This document shows, one piece after another, positions 1,323 through 10,428 of a stretch of DNA of 64,000 bases; the stretch's first letter is position 1; every line of letters begins with the position of its first letter. The DNA comes from a virus, in the IMG/VR virus record IMGVR_UViG_3300023174_000053, positions 64,001-128,000 of that record. One strand, 5' to 3'. The position numbers were made by a program, and so were the translations under genes. The notes under the pieces are model-generated. The model did no database searches, was not told where the DNA came from, and was given only the letters and a program-made list of their open reading frames with translations.

Positions 1323-3452
1323 TCAATCTTCGTCTTTTGGTTTAAATCTTCCAATTTCAGGCATTGAGTGTTGTTGCTTACCACCTCTCTTAGCAACACT
1401 TGTTCTTACACTATTGATATTATCAAATCTTTGAAGTTCTTTCATTCTTGCCTTTCTTTCCTTAGAACCAACATCAGTTCTTAGTGCTTGTAGTTGTCCC
1501 TCTTCATTATCAAGGAGTTTGCTTTCCTTTCTCTTCATTTTAGCAACAGGAAGAGGTTTCTTTTCTTCCATAATACTTTCAAACCAACCCTCACTCATAT
1601 TGTTGATAATCACATTTGCGTCATCAATTGTATTAGCAAAGTTATTTTCTAAAAGATATGATGCTACAAACTCGTATGCTTCATATGCCTCTCTATTGAG
1701 CATCTTTTTCTCTCTAGGGGTCAAAGCACTTCTTTGTGCTCCTCTTGCTGCCTGCTTTGCTTTTACCGTAGGGTCATTGGACTTATAAGCATATCCGTGA
1801 AGACCAGGATTTGAAGAAGTTGTATCACGGAAATCACCTCTTTGCTTTCTAGCAAGATTTTGTCTTGCATTTTGTTTTGCACTATCTCCATAAGTTGGTC
1901 TGTTTTCAAGTGCAGTTGCTCTATCAGCAGATTCTCCACCTTTTGTGTTTCTAGCAATCGTATTACGAATTGCAACCTCATCATAACCTCTCTTAGCCAT
2001 CGCAGTTGCTTCATTCGCAAGAACTTTCTTACGAATTGCTCCAGCAACTCTATTCCCTGCTTCTTTTGAACCATAACGTTTTGCAGCAGATGCAGCAATC
2101 TTCTTAAACATCAAACCTGGTTTGCCTTCGTCTCTTTCTTCAATATACTCAAGTTCTTCATAAATCTCAAACATATCATCCCAAGTATATCCACTTAGGT
2201 CATAACCTTCTTCAATAAGTTCATTTACCCAAAGTTCAACTTCTTCATTATAAGATTTGTTCTTCACCATAGCAATTGCTTTTGCTTTGGGAACACCAGA
2301 AGCAATCATTCTCGCAATTCTTACATCCGCAAAGTCATTATCACCATCTTCGTCTTGGTCTACTTTTTTCTTTGCTTCGTAGATTGAAGCATAAGCACCT
2401 GCAATTTCTCTAATTGTTTTTGCAGAAGGCCATTGATATGAAGAGGTTACATCTGACTTTTTGATGTCAAGTGCTTTTTTGAGCCTATCGGTTTCACCAG
2501 AAGAAGATGAAGAACCAGAACTTGAAGAAGATGAAGGAGTAGGAGTGCTTGGACCTCTATCATTATCAGCATTTACTCTTGCTGAAATCACATCCTTTCC
2601 TGCTTGTGGTGTTGAACTATTAGCAACCTTTCTTGCAAGTCCTGGATTAGAACGAGCCCAAGTATCCATAGGATTTGCTGAACTTGCTGCTGGTTTTGGT
2701 ACTGCAGAAGCAGCAGGTTTTACTGGTGCTGTAGGTGCTGCTGCTGGTTTTGCAGCTCCGCCAGAACTACTAGAACCACCAGAACCAGAACCAGAACCAC
2801 TTCCCGCAGAATATGCAGAAAGTCCAGTTGTTGAATGTACCGACGAAGAACCCGAAGTTGGTCTAGAACCAGGAGGGGCAGGTTTGCCTTGATCCATTCT
2901 TCCGAGATTTTTCTTACCTTGTGCAATTACTTGTGCAGTGCTACTTCCCATACCTTTTTGTGCAGCAGCATTTCCGCCACCAGCAGAATATGCTGATCTA
3001 TCAGCAGCAGATAGTCCAGAAACACCAGTAGAAGTTACTGATGATCCTTTTGGTGTTGTAGTTCCAAACTGTGGTTTTGTTGCTGCTGGTGGTTTTTGTA
3101 CTGGTGGTTTTTGTATACCAAATGCATTCCCGTATGCAGCAACATCATTTGCTCTATTTTGTGTTCTTTGACTTTGTTGTCTAGCAGAAGCAGCTGTTTG
3201 TTCTGCTCTTTTTTTATCACCAATTTGTTGAGACCTTTGCATAAATGTTTTTGCCGCAGCACTGTCACCAGAAGCCGCAGCTGCTCGTGACAATCCAGCA
3301 TTTCCACCTATTGAGGCAAAGGTATCTCTACCTTGTTGTGCTTGTTGAGCCTTTTGCACTCTATCAGCACTATAAGGTCCTTCATTCAACTGCTCTCCAC
3401 CATAAACACTTGAATATAACTCGTTCAATGCGTCTAAATCTTTTTTATTCAT
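1323..3452 (-). CDS. Low-complexity modular protein, probable internal head/virion protein
   Basis: 709 aa; Gly/Ser/Ala/Pro tracts, acidic helical modules, many L/I-x-E sites, late promoter upstream. Confidence 0.6.
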   Translation of the reverse strand: MNKKDLDALNELYSSVYGGEQLNEGPYSADRVQKAQQAQQGRDTFASIGGNAGLSRAAAASGDSAAAKTFMQRSQQIGDKKRAEQTAASARQQSQRTQNRANDVAAYGNAFGIQKPPVQKPPAATKPQFGTTTPKGSSVTSTGVSGLSAADRSAYSAGGGNAAAQKGMGSSTAQVIAQGKKNLGRMDQGKPAPPGSRPTSGSSSVHSTTGLSAYSAGSGSGSGSGGSSSSGGAAKPAAAPTAPVKPAASAVPKPAASSANPMDTWARSNPGLARKVANSSTPQAGKDVISARVNADNDRGPSTPTPSSSSSSGSSSSSGETDRLKKALDIKKSDVTSSYQWPSAKTIREIAGAYASIYEAKKKVDQDEDGDNDFADVRIARMIASGVPKAKAIAMVKNKSYNEEVELWVNELIEEGYDLSGYTWDDMFEIYEELEYIEERDEGKPGLMFKKIAASAAKRYGSKEAGNRVAGAIRKKVLANEATAMAKRGYDEVAIRNTIARNTKGGESADRATALENRPTYGDSAKQNARQNLARKQRGDFRDTTSSNPGLHGYAYKSNDPTVKAKQAARGAQRSALTPREKKMLNREAYEAYEFVASYLLENNFANTIDDANVIINNMSEGWFESIMEEKKPLPVAKMKRKESKLLDNEEGQLQALRTDVGSKERKARMKELQRFDNINSVRTSVAKRGGKQQHSMPEIGRFKPKDED

Positions 3453-3506
3453 CTTCTTAGGAGCAGTAAAAAGTACTTTTCTATATTTATTTAGTGTTTT
3501 TTAATA

Positions 3507-4847
3507 TCAATCAATAAACTGTTTCCAGTACTCATAAGAACTCATCTCTTCTCCCATATTCTTTCTTGCTTTTTTACGTGCTCTTTGTGTTTGTTTAGTA
3601 GTTTTTGGAGCAGCTGGTTTATCTCTTATTCCCGTTCTACCAGGCCTAAATGGTTTAGTTTCTGAACCAAGTCTAACAGGAACAATATCACCTTTTTTTG
3701 ATTTGCCTTTTATTTTTCTATCAGGTTTAGATTGAACTACTCGGGTAACAAATGCCCTTGTCCTAGAAGAAGGAGATTCGTTATGAGCTGCTTGGGCCAT
3801 ACTATGTGCCTGTGAAGGAATATCATCGTAAGTATCTATTGAGGATATTCTTTGGCCAGATTTTAATCTATTTTTTATAATAGAAGCAGCAGCTATTGCT
3901 TTTCTTTTTGGTCCAGAAATATTTCTAGGCATATTTCCAGTTAAATGTAGTTTTCCTCCTCCATGAGCACCTAATCCCAACATTCCAACATTTCTTAAAT
4001 GTTGTACCATCATTTGATTTCCACTTTTTGATTTATCATCATTATAATTACTCATTTGACCGCGAGCTGTGACCGCAGATGTTGGATTTATTCTTCTAGG
4101 ATTACTTCTTCTGTGTCCTGGTTGCACATGAGTTATAACAGCACGGTTACCTGAAGTGCCTCTAAGCATACCTGCATCATCAAATGACCCCTTTCCTTTA
4201 AAATCATAATGATGTCCTTTTGGTAATTTATGGTCTGCAAAATCGTGAGAACTAAGATTTTCCTTGGTTTCACCAGAAGGATTAACAACTTTAACTTTAG
4301 ATTTACTTGCCTTAAGAAATGCATCATCTAAATCTGAAAGTTTTACAGCTCTTGAAAGTTTTGCTTCTTCAATATACTCTTCAAGAATGACTGCTAAAAA
4401 TTCACTACTCATATGTTCAAACATATTTTCGGCAGTCTCATAATCTTCTGCGAATTCACTATCAACCAAAGTTTCAATTACATAATCATAAATGTTTTCT
4501 GTTTCTTCTTTTTGTGCTGCGTAATAAGCACCAAGTGCTCTCTTAATTCTTTGCTTCTTACTATCACCTTTGAAGGTTTTGCTCTTTGAATGGACGAAAT
4601 CACTGATTGTCGCACCAGCATCAGCACCTACATCAATCTTTTCATTTACTTCTACTTCTTCTTTTTTCACTGAAAGAAGTTTTGGTCCATTTAACTTCTT
4701 TTCTGCTGCTGCCTTTTCTCCAGGATTTGTAGTTCCTGCAGCAAGATTTGCAATTTTTGCTTTCCTTTTTGCTGCATTATGTCCTGAACCAATATCAAAA
4801 CTTACACCTTCACTGTAAATTCTTTTGAACTTAGAAATTCCAGACAT
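3507..4847 (-). CDS. Basic modular protein, probable internal head/virion protein
   Basis: ORF track; shares an acidic module with 1323..3452; TATAAATA late promoter at 4871-4878. Confidence 0.55.
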   Translation of the reverse strand: MSGISKFKRIYSEGVSFDIGSGHNAAKRKAKIANLAAGTTNPGEKAAAEKKLNGPKLLSVKKEEVEVNEKIDVGADAGATISDFVHSKSKTFKGDSKKQRIKRALGAYYAAQKEETENIYDYVIETLVDSEFAEDYETAENMFEHMSSEFLAVILEEYIEEAKLSRAVKLSDLDDAFLKASKSKVKVVNPSGETKENLSSHDFADHKLPKGHHYDFKGKGSFDDAGMLRGTSGNRAVITHVQPGHRRSNPRRINPTSAVTARGQMSNYNDDKSKSGNQMMVQHLRNVGMLGLGAHGGGKLHLTGNMPRNISGPKRKAIAAASIIKNRLKSGQRISSIDTYDDIPSQAHSMAQAAHNESPSSRTRAFVTRVVQSKPDRKIKGKSKKGDIVPVRLGSETKPFRPGRTGIRDKPAAPKTTKQTQRARKKARKNMGEEMSSYEYWKQFID

Positions 4848-4870
4848 ATGAGTAAGCAATACCTTCTTTT

Positions 4871-4880: not shown

Positions 4881-4903
4881 AAAAAGAGGGGTCGAAACCC
4901 CTC
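4881..4903 (-). terminator. Intrinsic terminator closing the nrdA-nrdB-endonuclease-deamidase unit
   Basis: GAGGGGT-TTCG-ACCCCTC-TTTTT (UUCG loop). Confidence 0.85.
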
Positions 4904-5318
4904 ATATTACATTTAATCCTGGTTTTAATACTTCATATTTTCCATTATTAAAAACAACCCCAGAATAATAGTTTTTACCATTAAACTCACAGAACATATT
5001 ATATTCTCTACTATCTTCAAATGGGGTTATATCTATTAAGTTTCCATAGGTATTTTTCCAGATACTATGGTATATCGCACACCCATAACTTTCATCATCA
5101 ATATCTGTGATTAAATAATAACCACTTATCTTTTTCCCCCCATAAGTATTTGTATAATGATTTACATTATTGTGGCAGTTTGCATCAGCGCATAAAGGTT
5201 TAACTACCACAGGAACTTTCAATAGAATAGAAGAAAAACTACAATACTCCTGAAGTTTTATTACACACTCATCTTCTGGTAGTGATATTCTAAATTTTCT
5301 CTTCAATACTCCATCCAT
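4902..5318 (-). CDS. Putative transglutaminase/papain-like Cys-His-Asp enzyme (candidate protein glutamine deamidase)
   Basis: NC48HNNV...YGG..ISGY...AIYH84SIW...GNLID96ITP: order and spacing of a C-H-D triad; overlaps the endonuclease 3' end by 29 nt. Confidence 0.6.
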   Translation of the reverse strand: MDGVLKRKFRISLPEDECVIKLQEYCSFSSILLKVPVVVKPLCADANCHNNVNHYTNTYGGKKISGYYLITDIDDESYGCAIYHSIWKNTYGNLIDITPFEDSREYNMFCEFNGKNYYSGVVFNNGKYEVLKPGLNVI

Positions 5319-5907
5319 TTGTTCTAGGTCCTTTTCTATTATACTTTATTGCGGCACTCATAGTCGCATATGAAATATTTTGAGATTTACAAAATTCTTT
5401 TAATCCTCCAATAATAACATATTCTTCATTTTCTGGAGAAATAATTTTCCAAGTTTTGGAATTTGAATTATCTTTTCCAAATTTTGGATGTATATTTTGA
5501 CTTATTTTGGTTTTTGTTTCTTGTGATAATTTAACTCCATATCTTGGATTATTTTTTCCTGCTACTTTTTCACTTATTCTTTTCTTTGCTTCTTCTGTGT
5601 GGGTTCTTCCACCAAAACCAGTAGTTTTTTGCCCTCCTGGTTTTCCATCACCACCAAGATTTTGATTTAATAAAACTCCGCCATCACACTCTCTTTTCCA
5701 AAGAGCGATATGTTTAATTTCCAAATCTATTGCTTCTTCTTTAGTTAATCCAGATTTAACTACATATCTCCTATGTCTTGGGGGAAGTATTTCTGCTCCA
5801 TTTCTTCTAGAATGTCTAGCATTAATTCTTCGTGGTTTTCCATATCCAACATAATATGGAGAACTAAAATCTTCCCTCAAATAGTAATAAAGAATATAGT
5901 TATTCAT
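5290..5907 (-). CDS. Free-standing GIY-YIG homing endonuclease with NUMOD3 repeats
   Basis: YILYYYLRED..PYYVGYG..RR, EA..LE..HI, GVLLNQNLGGDG, NUMOD3-like GRTHTEEAKKRISEK and GVKLSQETKTKISQ. Confidence 0.85.
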   Translation of the reverse strand: MNNYILYYYLREDFSSPYYVGYGKPRRINARHSRRNGAEILPPRHRRYVVKSGLTKEEAIDLEIKHIALWKRECDGGVLLNQNLGGDGKPGGQKTTGFGGRTHTEEAKKRISEKVAGKNNPRYGVKLSQETKTKISQNIHPKFGKDNSNSKTWKIISPENEEYVIIGGLKEFCKSQNISYATMSAAIKYNRKGPRTNGWSIEEKI

Positions 5908-5962
5908 TTTGAGACCGAACTTATCTATTATTATTTATATAATATATTAGTTCGGTCTTAAA
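5908..5962 (-). promoter_or_regulatory. Start-region-sequestering hairpin with a late promoter in its loop
   Basis: TTTAAGACCGAACT...TATAAATA...AGTTCGGTCTCAAA immediately before the ATG. Confidence 0.8.
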
Positions 5963-5967
5963 GTCAA

Positions 5968-7152
5968 TTAAAGTTGAAATCCAGCAAATGTGTCTTTTTC
6001 CACATCTTGTTTAATTCCACCAACCACATAGGACTGAACTTGTGTTTGTTGTGGTGCTACTTGAAGTCCCTTAGAACTAATCCAATGCTCCGTCCAAGGG
6101 AGTGGATTGTTTTTAGCAGCAATATCATAAAGTGGTTTAATACCAATAGACTTCATACGACGATTCGCAATCCACTCAACATAACTCCAAAGAAGTTTGT
6201 CGTTCAATCCAATCATTGAACCATCTTTGAACAAATATTCTGCCCACCTCTTTTCCTCATTTACACAATTCTCAAAAGCACCTTTTACCCATTCCTCTTC
6301 TTCCTTAGCAATTTGTTGCATTTCTGGATCATCTCCTTCACGCCATTTATTGAGGATGTTTTGAGTAATAACAAGGTGCTGATTTTCGTCTCTTGCGATG
6401 AGAGAGATAATTTTAGCGGATCCTTCCATAAGTTTGAGTTCACCAAACGCAAACGAGCAAGCGAAAGAGACATAGAATCTGATACCTTCGAGAATATTGA
6501 CATTTGCTACTGCACGATAGAGTTTTCTTTTGAGTTCATATCTTTCATCCTTTGCAGTTCCAGCACCTTCTTGTGCGTGAACCCAAAGATTTGAGTTTCC
6601 ATAATGTTGTGCGGAATTAATAAAGTCATCATAAGCACCAGTTACTGATGATGCCCGTTCAAGAATTTTTTCATTACTCAAAATAGAATCAAAAACTTCT
6701 GTGGGATCAGAGTAAACATTCTTAATAATGTATGTATAGGAACGACTATGAATCATTTCCATAAATTCCCAAACCTTCATACACGCTTCCAATTCAGGAA
6801 GAGAACAATAGGGAGTAAAAGCCATTCCGGGACCACGACCCTGAACTGAATCCAAAAGAATTTGATACTTCAAATTAGAAGTGAAGATGTGCTTTTGTTC
6901 TGGACGAAGAGTTTGATAATCCGCACGATCTTTCTGCAAAGAAACTTCTTCTGGTCTCCAGAAATATCCCAACTGCTGTTGAGTCAGTTTATCAAAGACT
7001 GGATACTTATAAGTATCATATCTTTGAACTCCAAGAGGAGCACCAAAAAACATAGGTTGCTTTTTGGCATCTACCTCTTGAGTATTAAATACGGTCATTC
7101 CTTCAATCATTTTTTCTTTCTCTGCAGTGGTTCTAAATTTTACAGGATTCAC
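5968..7152 (-). CDS. nrdB: Ribonucleotide reductase class Ia beta subunit
   Basis: FWRPEEV, DSVQGRGP, EMIHSRSY, LEGIRFY, RDENQH; the C-tail carries atypical QQTQVQSY; probable GTG start at 7152. Confidence 0.97.
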   Translation of the reverse strand: MNPVKFRTTAEKEKMIEGMTVFNTQEVDAKKQPMFFGAPLGVQRYDTYKYPVFDKLTQQQLGYFWRPEEVSLQKDRADYQTLRPEQKHIFTSNLKYQILLDSVQGRGPGMAFTPYCSLPELEACMKVWEFMEMIHSRSYTYIIKNVYSDPTEVFDSILSNEKILERASSVTGAYDDFINSAQHYGNSNLWVHAQEGAGTAKDERYELKRKLYRAVANVNILEGIRFYVSFACSFAFGELKLMEGSAKIISLIARDENQHLVITQNILNKWREGDDPEMQQIAKEEEEWVKGAFENCVNEEKRWAEYLFKDGSMIGLNDKLLWSYVEWIANRRMKSIGIKPLYDIAAKNNPLPWTEHWISSKGLQVAPQQTQVQSYVVGGIKQDVEKDTFAGFQL

Positions 7153-9430
7153 AATCTTCTTCTCCACCTTCTAAAAGTTCTTTAACTAAATCATCAATAC
7201 TTACTTTATCTTCCTTAACTTCATCAGTCTTATTATCATATGTATTTTGATAATATGCCGTCTTATGCCCCAGTTTAAAACAAGTAAGCATATCTTGTGC
7301 CATTACACTAACAGGAACTTCATTATTGGCATAATTCTCTGGATTATACGACCAGTTTCCAGAAATCGCTTGATCGAAGAATTTCTGCATAACTGCAACA
7401 ATATTAATATACCCACGATTGCTAGGCATATCCCAAAGCAACGTATAGTTGTTTTTAAGATGTTGATACTGTGGAACAATCTGTTTGAGAGGTCCTTTTT
7501 TAGATTTCTTAATTGATAAGAATCCACGAGGAGGTTCAATTCCATTAGTTGCATTTGAAACTACAGAACTTGATTCTGATGGCATTTGTGCTGTAAGAGT
7601 GGAGTGTCTCAATCCAAACTCTTTAATTGACTGTCTTAGTACTTCCCAATCGTGCTGAAGAGGAACAGAAGACACTTCATCTACATCTTTCTTGTAAGTA
7701 TCAATAGGAAGAATACCCTGCGAATATTTAGTACGATTGAAATATTCGCAAGCACCCTTTTCTTTAGCAACTTCATTTGATGCTTTGAGAAGAAAATATT
7801 GGAATGATTCAGACAATTGATGAACTGCATCCCAAGCCTCTTGAGTATCATAATTAAACCCAAGTTTAGCAAGATAATGTGCTAAACCAATATAACCAAC
7901 ACCCAAAGACCTACGTGCTTTAGTTCCAATCTCTGCAGCAACTATAGGATAGTTTTGATAATCAATCAATTCTTCCAAACCACGAACAGAAAGATTGCAA
8001 AGATCCTCAAACTCTTCATCTGATTTTACTTTACCGACATTAATAGCAGAAAGAATGCAAAGTGCAATCTCACCATTAGGGTCATCAATATGTTGAAGTG
8101 GGATTGTTGGAAGTGTAATCTCTTGGCAAAGATTACTCATTTCAACCTTATCAGTAAAGGATGAATGAGAATTACAATGGTCGATATTCATAATGTAAAT
8201 ACGACCTGTTTCAGCACGTTCTTTCAGGAGGTCCAAAAAGAGTTCTTGAGCTCCGATAGTCTTTCTAGGAATAGATTCATTTCGTTCTGCATCAACATAA
8301 AGATCGTCAAATCTATCAGTCCCAAAAGCATCATAAAGACCAGGAACTGCGTGTGGAGAGAAAAGTGAGATTTCTTCGTTTTTAATAAATCGTCCATAGA
8401 ACAGTTTAGAGATTTGGATACTGTAATCTAACTTACGAACACGATTATCCTCCGTACCCTTGTTGTTTTTTAAGACTAGAATGTCTTCGATTTCTTGATG
8501 CCAGATAGGAAAGTGGACTGTAGCAGAACCACCTCTGATGCCGTTTTGTGTGCAGCATCGCACAGTTGCCTCAAACTTTTTAAGGAAGGGGACCACACCT
8601 GTGTGCTGTACCTCTCCGCCTCTGATTTTAGAGTTGATGCCACGGATGCGACCTGCGTTGATGCCGATGCCTGCCCTTTGAGCAACATACCTCCCAATAG
8701 CCATATCACTACTGAAGATGCTATCGAGGGTGTCATCAACATCAACAAGAACACAACTTGCAAATTGACGAAGTGGTGTTCTAACTCCTGCCATAATGGG
8801 AGTTGGGATGTTGATTTTGTGTTTTGAGATTGCGTCATAATACCTCTTCACATATGAGAAACGTGTTTCTTTTGGATATCTAGCAAAAATAGTAGCAGCA
8901 ATCATCATATACATGAACTGTGGAGTTTCATATACTTGACCACTACTGCGATCTTGAACCAAATACTTATCAACTACTTGACGAAGACCAGCATAGGTGA
9001 AAAGATAATCTCTACTATGCTTGATATAACTACCAAGTCTATCAAGTTCTTCTTTCGTATAATTGGTCAAAATTTCTGGATCATAAACTCCAACATCTAC
9101 ACAACTATTAATGTGTTCGACAAAATCAGGATGATCTTGAACTCTTCCGTACAAAGATTTTCTTACAGAAAACAGAAGTAGTCTTGCTGCAACAAACTGA
9201 TAATTTGGATTATCCAAATCAATTAAATCAGAAGCAGAACGAATTAAAATCTCCTGAATTTCTGCTGTGGTGATTCCATCATAAAATTGAATACCAGATT
9301 GCATCTCTACCTGTGATGCAGAAACACCAGAGAGGTCTCTACATGCCTCCTCAACCATCAAGTGAAGTTTATTTAGATCAAGAGGTTCATTATCACCACT
9401 TCTCTTAACTACTTTTGTACCGTTGCTCAT
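7133..9430 (-). CDS. nrdA: Ribonucleotide reductase class Ia alpha subunit
   Basis: ATP-cone (VVKRSG), PTPIMAG, SCVL, SNLCQEI, AYYQNT, C-terminal CESC. Confidence 0.98.
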   Translation of the reverse strand: MSNGTKVVKRSGDNEPLDLNKLHLMVEEACRDLSGVSASQVEMQSGIQFYDGITTAEIQEILIRSASDLIDLDNPNYQFVAARLLLFSVRKSLYGRVQDHPDFVEHINSCVDVGVYDPEILTNYTKEELDRLGSYIKHSRDYLFTYAGLRQVVDKYLVQDRSSGQVYETPQFMYMMIAATIFARYPKETRFSYVKRYYDAISKHKINIPTPIMAGVRTPLRQFASCVLVDVDDTLDSIFSSDMAIGRYVAQRAGIGINAGRIRGINSKIRGGEVQHTGVVPFLKKFEATVRCCTQNGIRGGSATVHFPIWHQEIEDILVLKNNKGTEDNRVRKLDYSIQISKLFYGRFIKNEEISLFSPHAVPGLYDAFGTDRFDDLYVDAERNESIPRKTIGAQELFLDLLKERAETGRIYIMNIDHCNSHSSFTDKVEMSNLCQEITLPTIPLQHIDDPNGEIALCILSAINVGKVKSDEEFEDLCNLSVRGLEELIDYQNYPIVAAEIGTKARRSLGVGYIGLAHYLAKLGFNYDTQEAWDAVHQLSESFQYFLLKASNEVAKEKGACEYFNRTKYSQGILPIDTYKKDVDEVSSVPLQHDWEVLRQSIKEFGLRHSTLTAQMPSESSSVVSNATNGIEPPRGFLSIKKSKKGPLKQIVPQYQHLKNNYTLLWDMPSNRGYINIVAVMQKFFDQAISGNWSYNPENYANNEVPVSVMAQDMLTCFKLGHKTAYYQNTYDNKTDEVKEDKVSIDDLVKELLEGGEEDCESCKI

Positions 9431-10428
9431 ACTCGTTTCCATCCAATAAGTTTTGCTTTTGCTTCTAGTCCCATATAAGTATTTTCCTTGATGATTTTTG
9501 GGGCATCAATTCCTGATAGGATCATATCATTAATATCCTTTTCTTTCAAGTCATTTGGCCAAATGACAATTGGAAATCGCATTTGTATTGCTTTTTCCAT
9601 TCTATCAACAATTTGTTTATTCCGTTTTTCATTATCATATACCATTACAAAATCTGTTCCAAAGTTAGAAACAAAAAACATTTTGTCAATGTCTGCACCA
9701 ACCATAGCAATTGAATTATCTAAAAACATACTATCAAATGGTCCTTCAACAACATAAACAGTTTTATCGTAATCTGGTTTATCCAAATTGTAAATTTTTG
9801 GATGTGTATCATTAAGAATAATTGTAATGTATTTTACCTTTGAGTTTTTATTTAAACTACGACCTTGAAATCCAAATATTTCTCCTTTATTGATTAAAGG
9901 AATAATGATTCGTGGTTCGTCCTTTTCTACTTTATCAAATGTGTGTTTTTGAGTATTCGTCCATTCTTTAAACTTCTCACAGAAATACAATTCACGCAGA
10001 TAGTTGTTGGGTATCTTTCTATCTTCTAGGTATTTTCTTGCGGAGTGTTCTTTATTTAGTTCTGCGATAGTAGGTAGGTCAAATGCCTTTTTTGAAAAGT
10101 TTGGTTTCTCAAAATTAAACTCTGGGTTCTTTGTTTGTGATCCTCTTCCTGTTATTCCCTCTTTATATCTCTCCATTACATACTGGTCGTAAAGAACAGT
10201 ATCCATATCTTTTAGAAAGTTTGTAAAAGTTCTAGAAGTCCCACAATTATGACATTTGAAATTGTGATCATTCTTTAATTGGTAAATATACCCTCTTGTT
10301 TTACTCTTTGTCTTTTGACTATCACCACAGTAAGGACACCGAAAGTTATAAAGACCTTCTTTCTTCTTAGCAAACTTATCCAGTCGGGAAGAAACCAACC
10401 CGATATATTTGGAATCAACAAAACTCAT
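9427..10428 (-). CDS. DNA primase (gp61)
   Basis: Zn finger CPYCGD...CHNC; TOPRIM VVEGPFD, YDNE, KDIND. Confidence 0.95.
   Translation of the reverse strand: MSFVDSKYIGLVSSRLDKFAKKKEGLYNFRCPYCGDSQKTKSKTRGYIYQLKNDHNFKCHNCGTSRTFTNFLKDMDTVLYDQYVMERYKEGITGRGSQTKNPEFNFEKPNFSKKAFDLPTIAELNKEHSARKYLEDRKIPNNYLRELYFCEKFKEWTNTQKHTFDKVEKDEPRIIIPLINKGEIFGFQGRSLNKNSKVKYITIILNDTHPKIYNLDKPDYDKTVYVVEGPFDSMFLDNSIAMVGADIDKMFFVSNFGTDFVMVYDNEKRNKQIVDRMEKAIQMRFPIVIWPNDLKEKDINDMILSGIDAPKIIKENTYMGLEAKAKLIGWKRV

Follow-up and report, generated by a model that had tools for sequence, protein, structure and literature searches.

A glutamine-recoded tail of phage ribonucleotide reductase is linked to an inserted endonuclease cassette that carries a candidate tail-acting enzyme

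We analysed a 64,000-nucleotide stretch of a T4-like cyanomyovirus (positions 64,001 to 128,000 of IMG/VR virus record IMGVR_UViG_3300023174_000053, hereafter the window), in which nrdB, the gene for the small subunit of class Ia ribonucleotide reductase (RNR), encoded glutamines in its C-terminal tail where close relatives encode glutamates, and was followed by an inserted cassette comprising a predicted homing endonuclease and a second gene, orf138. The recoded allele was strictly linked to the cassette and moved among diverged nrdB backgrounds. Our leading, though still tentative, explanation is that of a selfish cassette in which the recoded tail would provide immunity and orf138 would be a candidate repair enzyme. 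The features at the centre of this account are, in the tail:

5968..7167, minus strand: nrdB, class Ia ribonucleotide reductase small subunit, 399 amino acids, with a Gln-recoded C-terminal tail (PF00268, E 2.5e-54)
6028..6051, minus strand: recoded motif QQTQVQSY (in E. coli numbering Q349, E350Q, T351, E352Q, V353, Gln at 354, S355, Y356), putative core of the site targeted by the endonuclease
6031..6033, minus strand: Ser355 codon TCC, a synonymous three-base switch from the AGT of the two closest relatives

The nrdB tail of the window read ...LQVAPQQTQVQSYVVGG... and contained APQQTQVQSY, with CAA CAA ACA CAA GTT CAG TCC TAT as minus-strand codons 6051..6028. A reading made from the sequence alone had claimed three clustered first-position G->C changes from Glu to Gln codons, judged against a consensus of QETEVESY, and comparison with homologues bore out each part of this. 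The closest cassette-free relative (L174, 93.5% nucleotide identity over nrdB) had CAA GAA ACG GAA GTT GAG AGT TAT, encoding QETEVESY, and the window differed from it by G->C at codon first positions 6048, 6042 and 6036. APQETEVESY was found in 80 of the 120 closest database homologues, among which QQTQVQ occurred in several diverged sequences and the intermediate QETQVQ in others. Within the motif, the window further differed from L174 by a synonymous ACG->ACA change and by a full switch of the Ser codon from AGT to TCC, giving seven differences in the motif's 30-nucleotide bin compared to about one per 30 nucleotides in the rest of nrdB. The synonymous Ser355 switch suggests that, in the lineage of the window, the sequence was replaced or changed at the DNA level without change to the protein; across relatives, both Ser codon families were present at this position and it did not discriminate generally. 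Contigs from two independent studies, in runs X4 (2018, depth ~102) and X6 (2019), were identical to the window over 5939..6196, the support here being assembled contigs rather than raw reads, and the motif recurred in over 80 different contigs, in which its Gln codons varied synonymously between CAA and CAG. The ratio of nonsynonymous to synonymous substitution rates (dN/dS) was 0.064 for the nrdB core. Neither sequencing error nor general decay, both of which the sequence-only reading had discounted, is compatible with these results.

That reading was also right that the changes were clustered and non-random, and what it overlooked was the mobile homing-endonuclease cassette directly behind nrdB:

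4904..5971, minus strand: inserted cassette of ~1,065 base pairs (bp), located after the stop codon of nrdB and ahead of its terminator
5290..5907, minus strand: predicted free-standing homing endonuclease gene, 205 amino acids, with a GIY-YIG-like N-terminus, NUMOD3 and a C-terminal DNA-binding region
4902..5318, minus strand: orf138, 138 amino acids, member of an undescribed protein family and candidate enzyme acting on the NrdB tail, overlapping the 3' end of the endonuclease gene
4886..4903, minus strand: intrinsic terminator hairpin GAGGGGTTTCGACCCCTC with a T run, directly 3' of nrdB in cassette-free relatives

Homology with two cassette-free relatives, L174 and L175, ended at 5972 and restarted at 4903, and contigs of runs X4 and X8 carried the empty-site joint from 4904/4907 to 5972, skipping 1064-1067 nucleotides. 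In X4 the cassette-free form had a depth of ~41 compared to ~102 for the cassette-bearing form. Both forms were found in the same lake samples, and presence/absence polymorphism of the cassette appears to be live in natural populations. As the terminator directly follows nrdB in cassette-free relatives, the cassette lies within the nrdAB transcription unit, in which the gene order on the minus strand was nrdA, then nrdB.

Among cyanophage relatives, 48 carriers of the endonuclease had a non-canonical motif and none had the canonical QETEVESY, whereas 69 of the 76 non-carriers were canonical and seven were not (Fisher p 3e-27). On an nrdB-core tree that excluded the tail, endonuclease presence changed state at least 22 times, and the motif tracked each change (independent pairs 10:0). 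The only nucleotides that strongly discriminated carriers from non-carriers were 6048, 6042 and 6036, which were G in 69/69 canonical cassette-free relatives and non-G in 74%, 98% and 100%, respectively, of those carrying both the endonuclease and orf138. Carriers of the endonuclease only, which belong to a shorter subfamily without orf138, differed instead at 6039, giving V353I or V353Q. Discrimination was confined to the six-codon motif: carriers and non-carriers had in common both the segment upstream of it and the 19 residues that follow Y356, which ruled out hitch-hiking of the allele on a long co-conversion tract. Synonymous divergence (dS) of the cassette was 0.57-0.59 compared to 1.40 for the nrdB core of the same genome pairs, which fits horizontal spread. 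In our judgement, the linkage between allele and cassette is secure.

Some related loci retained a second copy of the NrdB tail. In L181 (3001-3411) and L182, a displaced tail with the canonical QETEKESY was fused to the end of the orf138-like open reading frame (ORF), while the working nrdB upstream of it in L181 read QETQKQSY; the orf138-like ORFs of L151 (4545-5045) and L269 likewise ended in a displaced tail copy. Judged from their arrangement, such copies mark a cassette that arrived with a replacement tail of its own. Since it was the canonical tail that was displaced in L181 and L182, the ancestral break or junction of that lineage would have been at the motif. The window itself had no displaced original 3' end, and homology with L174 restarted at the terminator.

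We then scanned IMG/VR for NrdB tails matching the pattern Q-x-A-P-Q-Q-x-[E/Q]-x-x-x-Y-x-x-G and for their Glu-type counterpart, counting each locus once and only where 1.2 kb or more of sequence followed downstream. An ORF of the orf138 family lay downstream in all 78 Gln-350 loci and in none of the 152 Glu-350 loci, and both sets spanned 43-95% identity to the NrdB of the window. The sequence-only reading would have failed if relatives commonly had Gln without a linked enzyme; each of the 78 Gln-type loci had an orf138-family gene of the Cys-His-Asp type described below. Tail state changed at least 43 times on a tree of 257 NrdB cores, and 19 of 19 independent supported pairs agreed (p 3.8e-6). 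Among 185,579 prokaryotic species, represented by one genome each, there was a single match to a Gln-350 NrdB tail, and it too had an orf138-like gene adjoining. This match (L423) was on a Flavobacteriaceae contig from a metagenome-assembled genome, where a stop-to-stop frame containing the tail spanned 60 codons and was followed by the orf138-like ORF; the locus could belong to a prophage, stem from a phage contig that contaminates the assembly, or contain a split gene. Distant members of the orf138 family (36-50% identity) that directly followed nrdB were each accompanied by a tail with Gln at 350 and/or 352, including these:

L176 and L179: nrdB tail QQTQIE, orf138 relative directly after nrdB
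L177: nrdB tail QQSEIQ, orf138 relative directly after nrdB
L180: nrdB tail QTQID, orf138 relative directly after nrdB
L181: nrdB tail QETQKQ, orf138 relative directly after nrdB
L410: nrdB tail QQTEVQ (SPQQTEVQSY), orf138 relative directly after nrdB

The association with orf138 was independent of the kind of nuclease and of its presence. The nuclease was a separate gene between nrdB and orf138 at 37 loci, a GIY-YIG nuclease was fused behind the orf138 domain at 31 of the 78, and in L410 the orf138 domain was fused to a nuclease of a different type, with DUF723 repeats and a Vsr-like motif. The L410 protein (2501-4117, 538 amino acids) comprised DUF723 zinc-finger units in several copies together with a Vsr/DUF559-like nuclease motif, and had its orf138-like domain at the C-terminus; it is a second nuclease type travelling with this domain. 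Four loci (L230, L234, L269 and L280) had no recognisable nuclease within 3 kb and kept an intact, stand-alone orf138-like gene. Conversely, a Gln tail with a nuclease and without orf138 was found in no case, and E->Q never occurred in the 13 loci that had an endonuclease without orf138. In the four nuclease-free loci, the orf138-like gene was followed by glutaredoxin-like (CPYC) genes.

In alignment, the window protein matched E. coli NrdB end to end (E 4e-121), with tails equal in length and register, so that Q374, Q376, Q378 and Y380 of the window correspond to E. coli E350, E352, S354 and Y356. The equivalents of E. coli W48, D84, E115, H118, Y122, E204, E238, H241 and Y356 were all conserved. 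It is plainly still an NrdB, and its departure from the family is the encoded tail, which retained the radical-relay tyrosine and had Gln374 in place of the essential Glu350. The alignment also placed the E350 equivalent close to Y356, in agreement with the earlier placement of the Gln codons next to the radical-relay tyrosine. In E. coli class Ia RNR, E350 is described as essential for turnover, positioning the tail for radical transfer, which its substitution is described as disrupting, and forming hydrogen bonds with large-subunit residues K154 and S647 (PMC8463856, PMC11482829). The large subunit is encoded directly before nrdB:

7133..9442, minus strand: nrdA, class Ia large subunit, 769 amino acids, with Pfam ATP-cone, lgN and lgC domains

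NrdA K154 (K159 in the window), S647, K648, Y730 and Y731 were conserved in phages of both tail types, Gln and Glu, and none of the columns of NrdA strongly tracked tail type (the largest frequency difference being 0.52). With the contacts of E350 unchanged and no column following the tail, compensation in NrdA was ruled out.

Searches with orf138 gave no Pfam, NCBIfam or informative PHROG match, and no consistent Pfam match was found among 99 family members. A search of 1.84 billion representatives recovered 139 representative homologues, in which C48 (136/136), H84 (136/136) and D96 (132/137, 97%) were conserved and N51, G60, G61, G66, T98 and P99 were near-invariant. The Cys-His-Asp set was intact in 85-86 of the 86 nrdB-linked ORFs of the family, and dN/dS of orf138 was 0.15. 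An AlphaFold2 (AF2) model reached a mean predicted local distance difference test (pLDDT) score of 90.3 with a deep alignment and 37 with a shallow one. In the model, Cys48 opened a helix (48-59), while His84 and Asp96 were on neighbouring strands (78-88 and 94-96). A Cys-His-Asp set with Cys at a helix N-terminus is a hallmark of papain-like and transglutaminase-like hydrolases, some of which deamidate protein Gln, and the order and placement of the three residues in the orf138 model were those of such enzymes. A Foldseek search of the PDB with the orf138 fold gave no match, the ESM Atlas gave only unnamed clusters and one SEC-C cluster, and the best structural match among viral models was a fusion of this domain to a nuclease. 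With one invariant Cys only, orf138 was ruled out as a YfaE-like ferredoxin. No convincing match to orf138, P0135 or P0143 was found by tblastn in 50,697 GenBank phage records, and so, within the searched collections, the system is known only from uncultured phages; a search of IMG/VR for loci related to P0125 and P0129 gave none. A distant member of the family (protein P0184 of L412, 2501-3040, E 6e-6) was found on a bacterial-looking contig beside a helix-turn-helix protein and an IS110 transposase and not near nrdB, and other distant members, in Bacteroidota, carried SEC-C motifs. The wider orf138 superfamily may have other substrates.

The endonuclease of the window matched NUMOD3 (PF07460, E 1.5e-12), phrog_314 'homing endonuclease' and, under the family cut-off, TIGR01453 group I intron endonuclease (E 6e-8), and had C-terminal similarity to the I-TevI family. 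Its C-terminal half was 36% identical to a LEM-3-type GIY-YIG endonuclease recognised by Pfam. The protein itself had no GIY-YIG match in Pfam; in hhalign against LEM-3-type GIY-YIG domains, YVGYG...R...E...N fell in register, but with a probability of 17% (E 0.0015). In 80 IMG/VR loci found through the endonuclease, the gene was always 59-71 bp after nrdB, and its dN/dS was 0.13. As expected of a homing endonuclease, it was present or absent at a fixed site by a conserved gene, and carriers had a variant target sequence.

Taken together, we propose that the QxQxQ tail is the allele of a selfish cassette, formed by the homing endonuclease and orf138, immediately after nrdB. The endonuclease would recognise or cut the conserved E350-S355 codons in cassette-free genomes, and G->C at the first base of GAA/GAG would make the carrier's own nrdB copy resistant. 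As the changed G positions are exactly those separating carriers from non-carriers, a DNA-level cause in the form of endonuclease resistance is the best-supported part of this proposal, and the Gln codons very probably confer target-site resistance to the predicted cleavage. Three identical transversions could be explained by the genetic code: of the possible changes at the first base of GAA/GAG, G->A produces Lys, G->T produces a stop, and G->C alone leads to a conservative residue. Gln is also the one residue that a hydrolase can turn into Glu. The product of orf138 would then act post-translationally on the NrdB tail, hydrolysing the Gln amides back to Glu, and Gln at E350 would be tolerated because the co-inherited orf138 acts on the tail. 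A putative post-translational role for orf138, most likely this Gln->Glu repair, is in our tentative view the best single explanation for the nuclease-independent association. Once the arrangement had become fixed, the phage would be unable to lose orf138, even after loss of the nuclease. It may be, and we hold this slightly more loosely, that the whole is a recode-and-repair element in which Glu codons were rewritten to Gln and a carried candidate Cys-His-Asp glutamine deamidase restores Glu; the host phage would then depend on the element, as orf138 is kept even where the nuclease is lost.

Several points weigh against repair by orf138 and the model built on it. The need for Glu at 350 in phage class Ia RNR is extrapolated from E. 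coli, and the conserved Q349 beside it would have to be spared by the proposed deamidase. One orf138 carrier (L140) had no Gln in the motif (QETEIT). In structural comparison by VIA-align, orf138 had a best Z of 3.7 and no convincing solved relative; TglA (Z 3.2), PeiW (Z 2.6) and staphopain (Z 2.4) matched over core residues 38-117, and glyoxalase-like rows had equal Z. The N-terminal domain of the endonuclease is likened to GIY-YIG by its motifs alone. The orf138 domain was nuclease-fused in ~40% of loci and its distant family members were found in bacterial contigs away from nrdB, which fits an accessory role at the DNA level; such fusions and bacterial mobile-element contexts allow that role equally.

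The main rival takes up these last points. Here the recoded motif is an immunity allele only, the Gln tail works natively, and orf138 is a DNA-level module and no protein-modifying enzyme; it could be a domain for targeting or regulation, or an additional nuclease with the G of the Glu codons among its contacts. We consider this unlikely, though the strongest of the alternatives. It would account for the fusion of the orf138 domain to GIY-YIG/NUMOD3 nucleases in 31/78 loci and to a nuclease of another kind in L410, for a nuclease fusion as best match among viral models, and for distant relatives with DUF723 or SEC-C zinc motifs or near an IS110 transposase; nor was any similarity of orf138 to known deamidases found, and Q349 stays Gln. 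However, the invariant Cys-His-Asp set with Cys at a helix N-terminus is unlike DNA-binding modules, and the endonucleases have NUMOD3 and C-terminal DNA-binding regions of their own, which differ between Gln-type (205 amino acids) and non-Gln-type (172 amino acids) cassettes. A module serving the nuclease is also difficult to reconcile with intact orf138 in the four nuclease-free loci and with the lack of any locus with Gln tail and nuclease but no orf138, and native function of the Gln tail with the essential role of E350 in E. coli and its unchanged large-subunit partners.

A protein-level role other than repair, which we regard as improbable, would make orf138 a cysteine peptidase that clips the Glu-type tails of co-infecting cassette-free phages, the Gln tail being resistant to it, or a transglutaminase-like enzyme that cross-links the tail Gln to an NrdA Lys. 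The same association data and Cys-His-Asp set would fit, as would the weak structural rows for staphopain, PeiW and TglA, but this role, too, demands a Gln that functions natively at E350. For the cross-linking variant, according to work on the E. coli enzyme (PMC8463856), subunits joined covalently would be kept from the dissociation that turnover needs. Far less probable still is a return to Glu before or during translation, either through C->G editing of the codons in RNA or through a tRNA that reads CAA/CAG but carries Glu. Hosts with the indirect Gln-tRNA pathway do transiently make Glu-tRNA(Gln), but Q349 and every other Gln codon would be affected too and the link to orf138 would be left unexplained; bacteria and phages are not known to have a C->G editing system. 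Least probable of all is an artefact of sequencing or assembly, or a pseudogene, which was ruled out by the matching contigs of two studies, the recurrence of the motif, the intact ORF with its catalytic residues and the dN/dS of 0.064.

The closest known systems to a selfish cassette of this kind are the free-standing homing endonucleases of T4-like phages (the seg genes, mobE between nrdA and nrdB, and the 'intronless homing' of SegF) and F-CphI at cyanophage psbA. In T4-like elements, the nuclease gene lies by a conserved gene and is found in some close relatives and not in others; the target sequence of carriers is a variant one, markers that flank it are co-converted, and RNR genes are favoured sites (PMC3653736). 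Like these, the cassette of the window adjoins a conserved gene, is variably present and comes with a variant target sequence in carriers. Unlike these, the putatively resistant allele of the window alters catalytically important residues rather than wobble bases, and the Gln-type element is invariably accompanied by an additional Cys-His-Asp protein that is missing from known seg and mob elements. The displaced nrdB tails of L181/L182, L151 and L269 resemble fungal mitochondrial 'gene hybrids', in which an endonuclease ORF comes with a replacement 3' end, whereas in the window there was no displaced tail, the cassette followed the stop codon and only the motif differed from the sister genome.

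At the protein level, the tail of the window was like the E. coli RNR beta tail in length and register and in the conservation of Y356 and Q349 and of NrdA K154, S647, Y730 and Y731, but unlike it in having Gln at position 350. Encoding Gln where Glu is needed has precedents: chemoreceptor methylation-site Gln is deamidated by CheB or CheD, and the C-terminal Gln of Pup by Dop. By analogy, the window may encode Gln where Glu is needed, with a candidate dedicated enzyme encoded nearby, but orf138 has no sequence or fold relationship to CheB, CheD or Dop, and its recoding would serve a selfish DNA element. The modelled orf138 resembles papain-like and transglutaminase-like enzymes (among them the protein-glutamine deamidases OspI, Cif and protein-glutaminase) in the order of Cys, His and Asp and in their helix/strand placement, and differs from them in having no family-level sequence match and weak structural rows (Z 2.4-3.2).

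There are dozens of conserved phage nrdB lineages of long standing with an encoded Gln-350, so either the textbook requirement for Glu in radical transfer between the subunits is not universal or Glu is restored post-translationally, and the replicated strict link to the orf138 family provides a concrete candidate enzyme. If repair is true, a mobile element would be altering non-wobble positions of its target by having the host protein edited after translation, which would be new, as would this way for a genome to become 'addicted' to a selfish element and the family of protein-glutamine deamidases with site specificity that orf138 would represent. If repair is false, the cassette would still provide a new homing-endonuclease accessory domain and natural E350Q variants for studies of RNR mechanism.

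The best GenBank phage match to the window was Synechococcus phage DSL-LC03 (82% nucleotide identity over nrdB), and the metagenome runs containing the stretch were freshwater and lake samples. An RNA run (X15) covered 6221..7040. The spacer of 60 bp that separates nrdB from the endonuclease gene contained a promoter-like TTGACT-17-TATTAT (10/12 matches; 5939..5967, minus strand), a quality that shuffled sequence reached as often. On the 3' side of the cassette, a 450-amino-acid ORF (3507..4859, minus strand) with no family match was conserved in patches compared to its counterparts in L174 (486 amino acids) and L175 (381 amino acids). The cassette-free L175 also had a SegE-type GIY-YIG gene at 8502-8951, ~3 kb downstream of nrdB, indicating that other homing endonucleases reside in these genomes.

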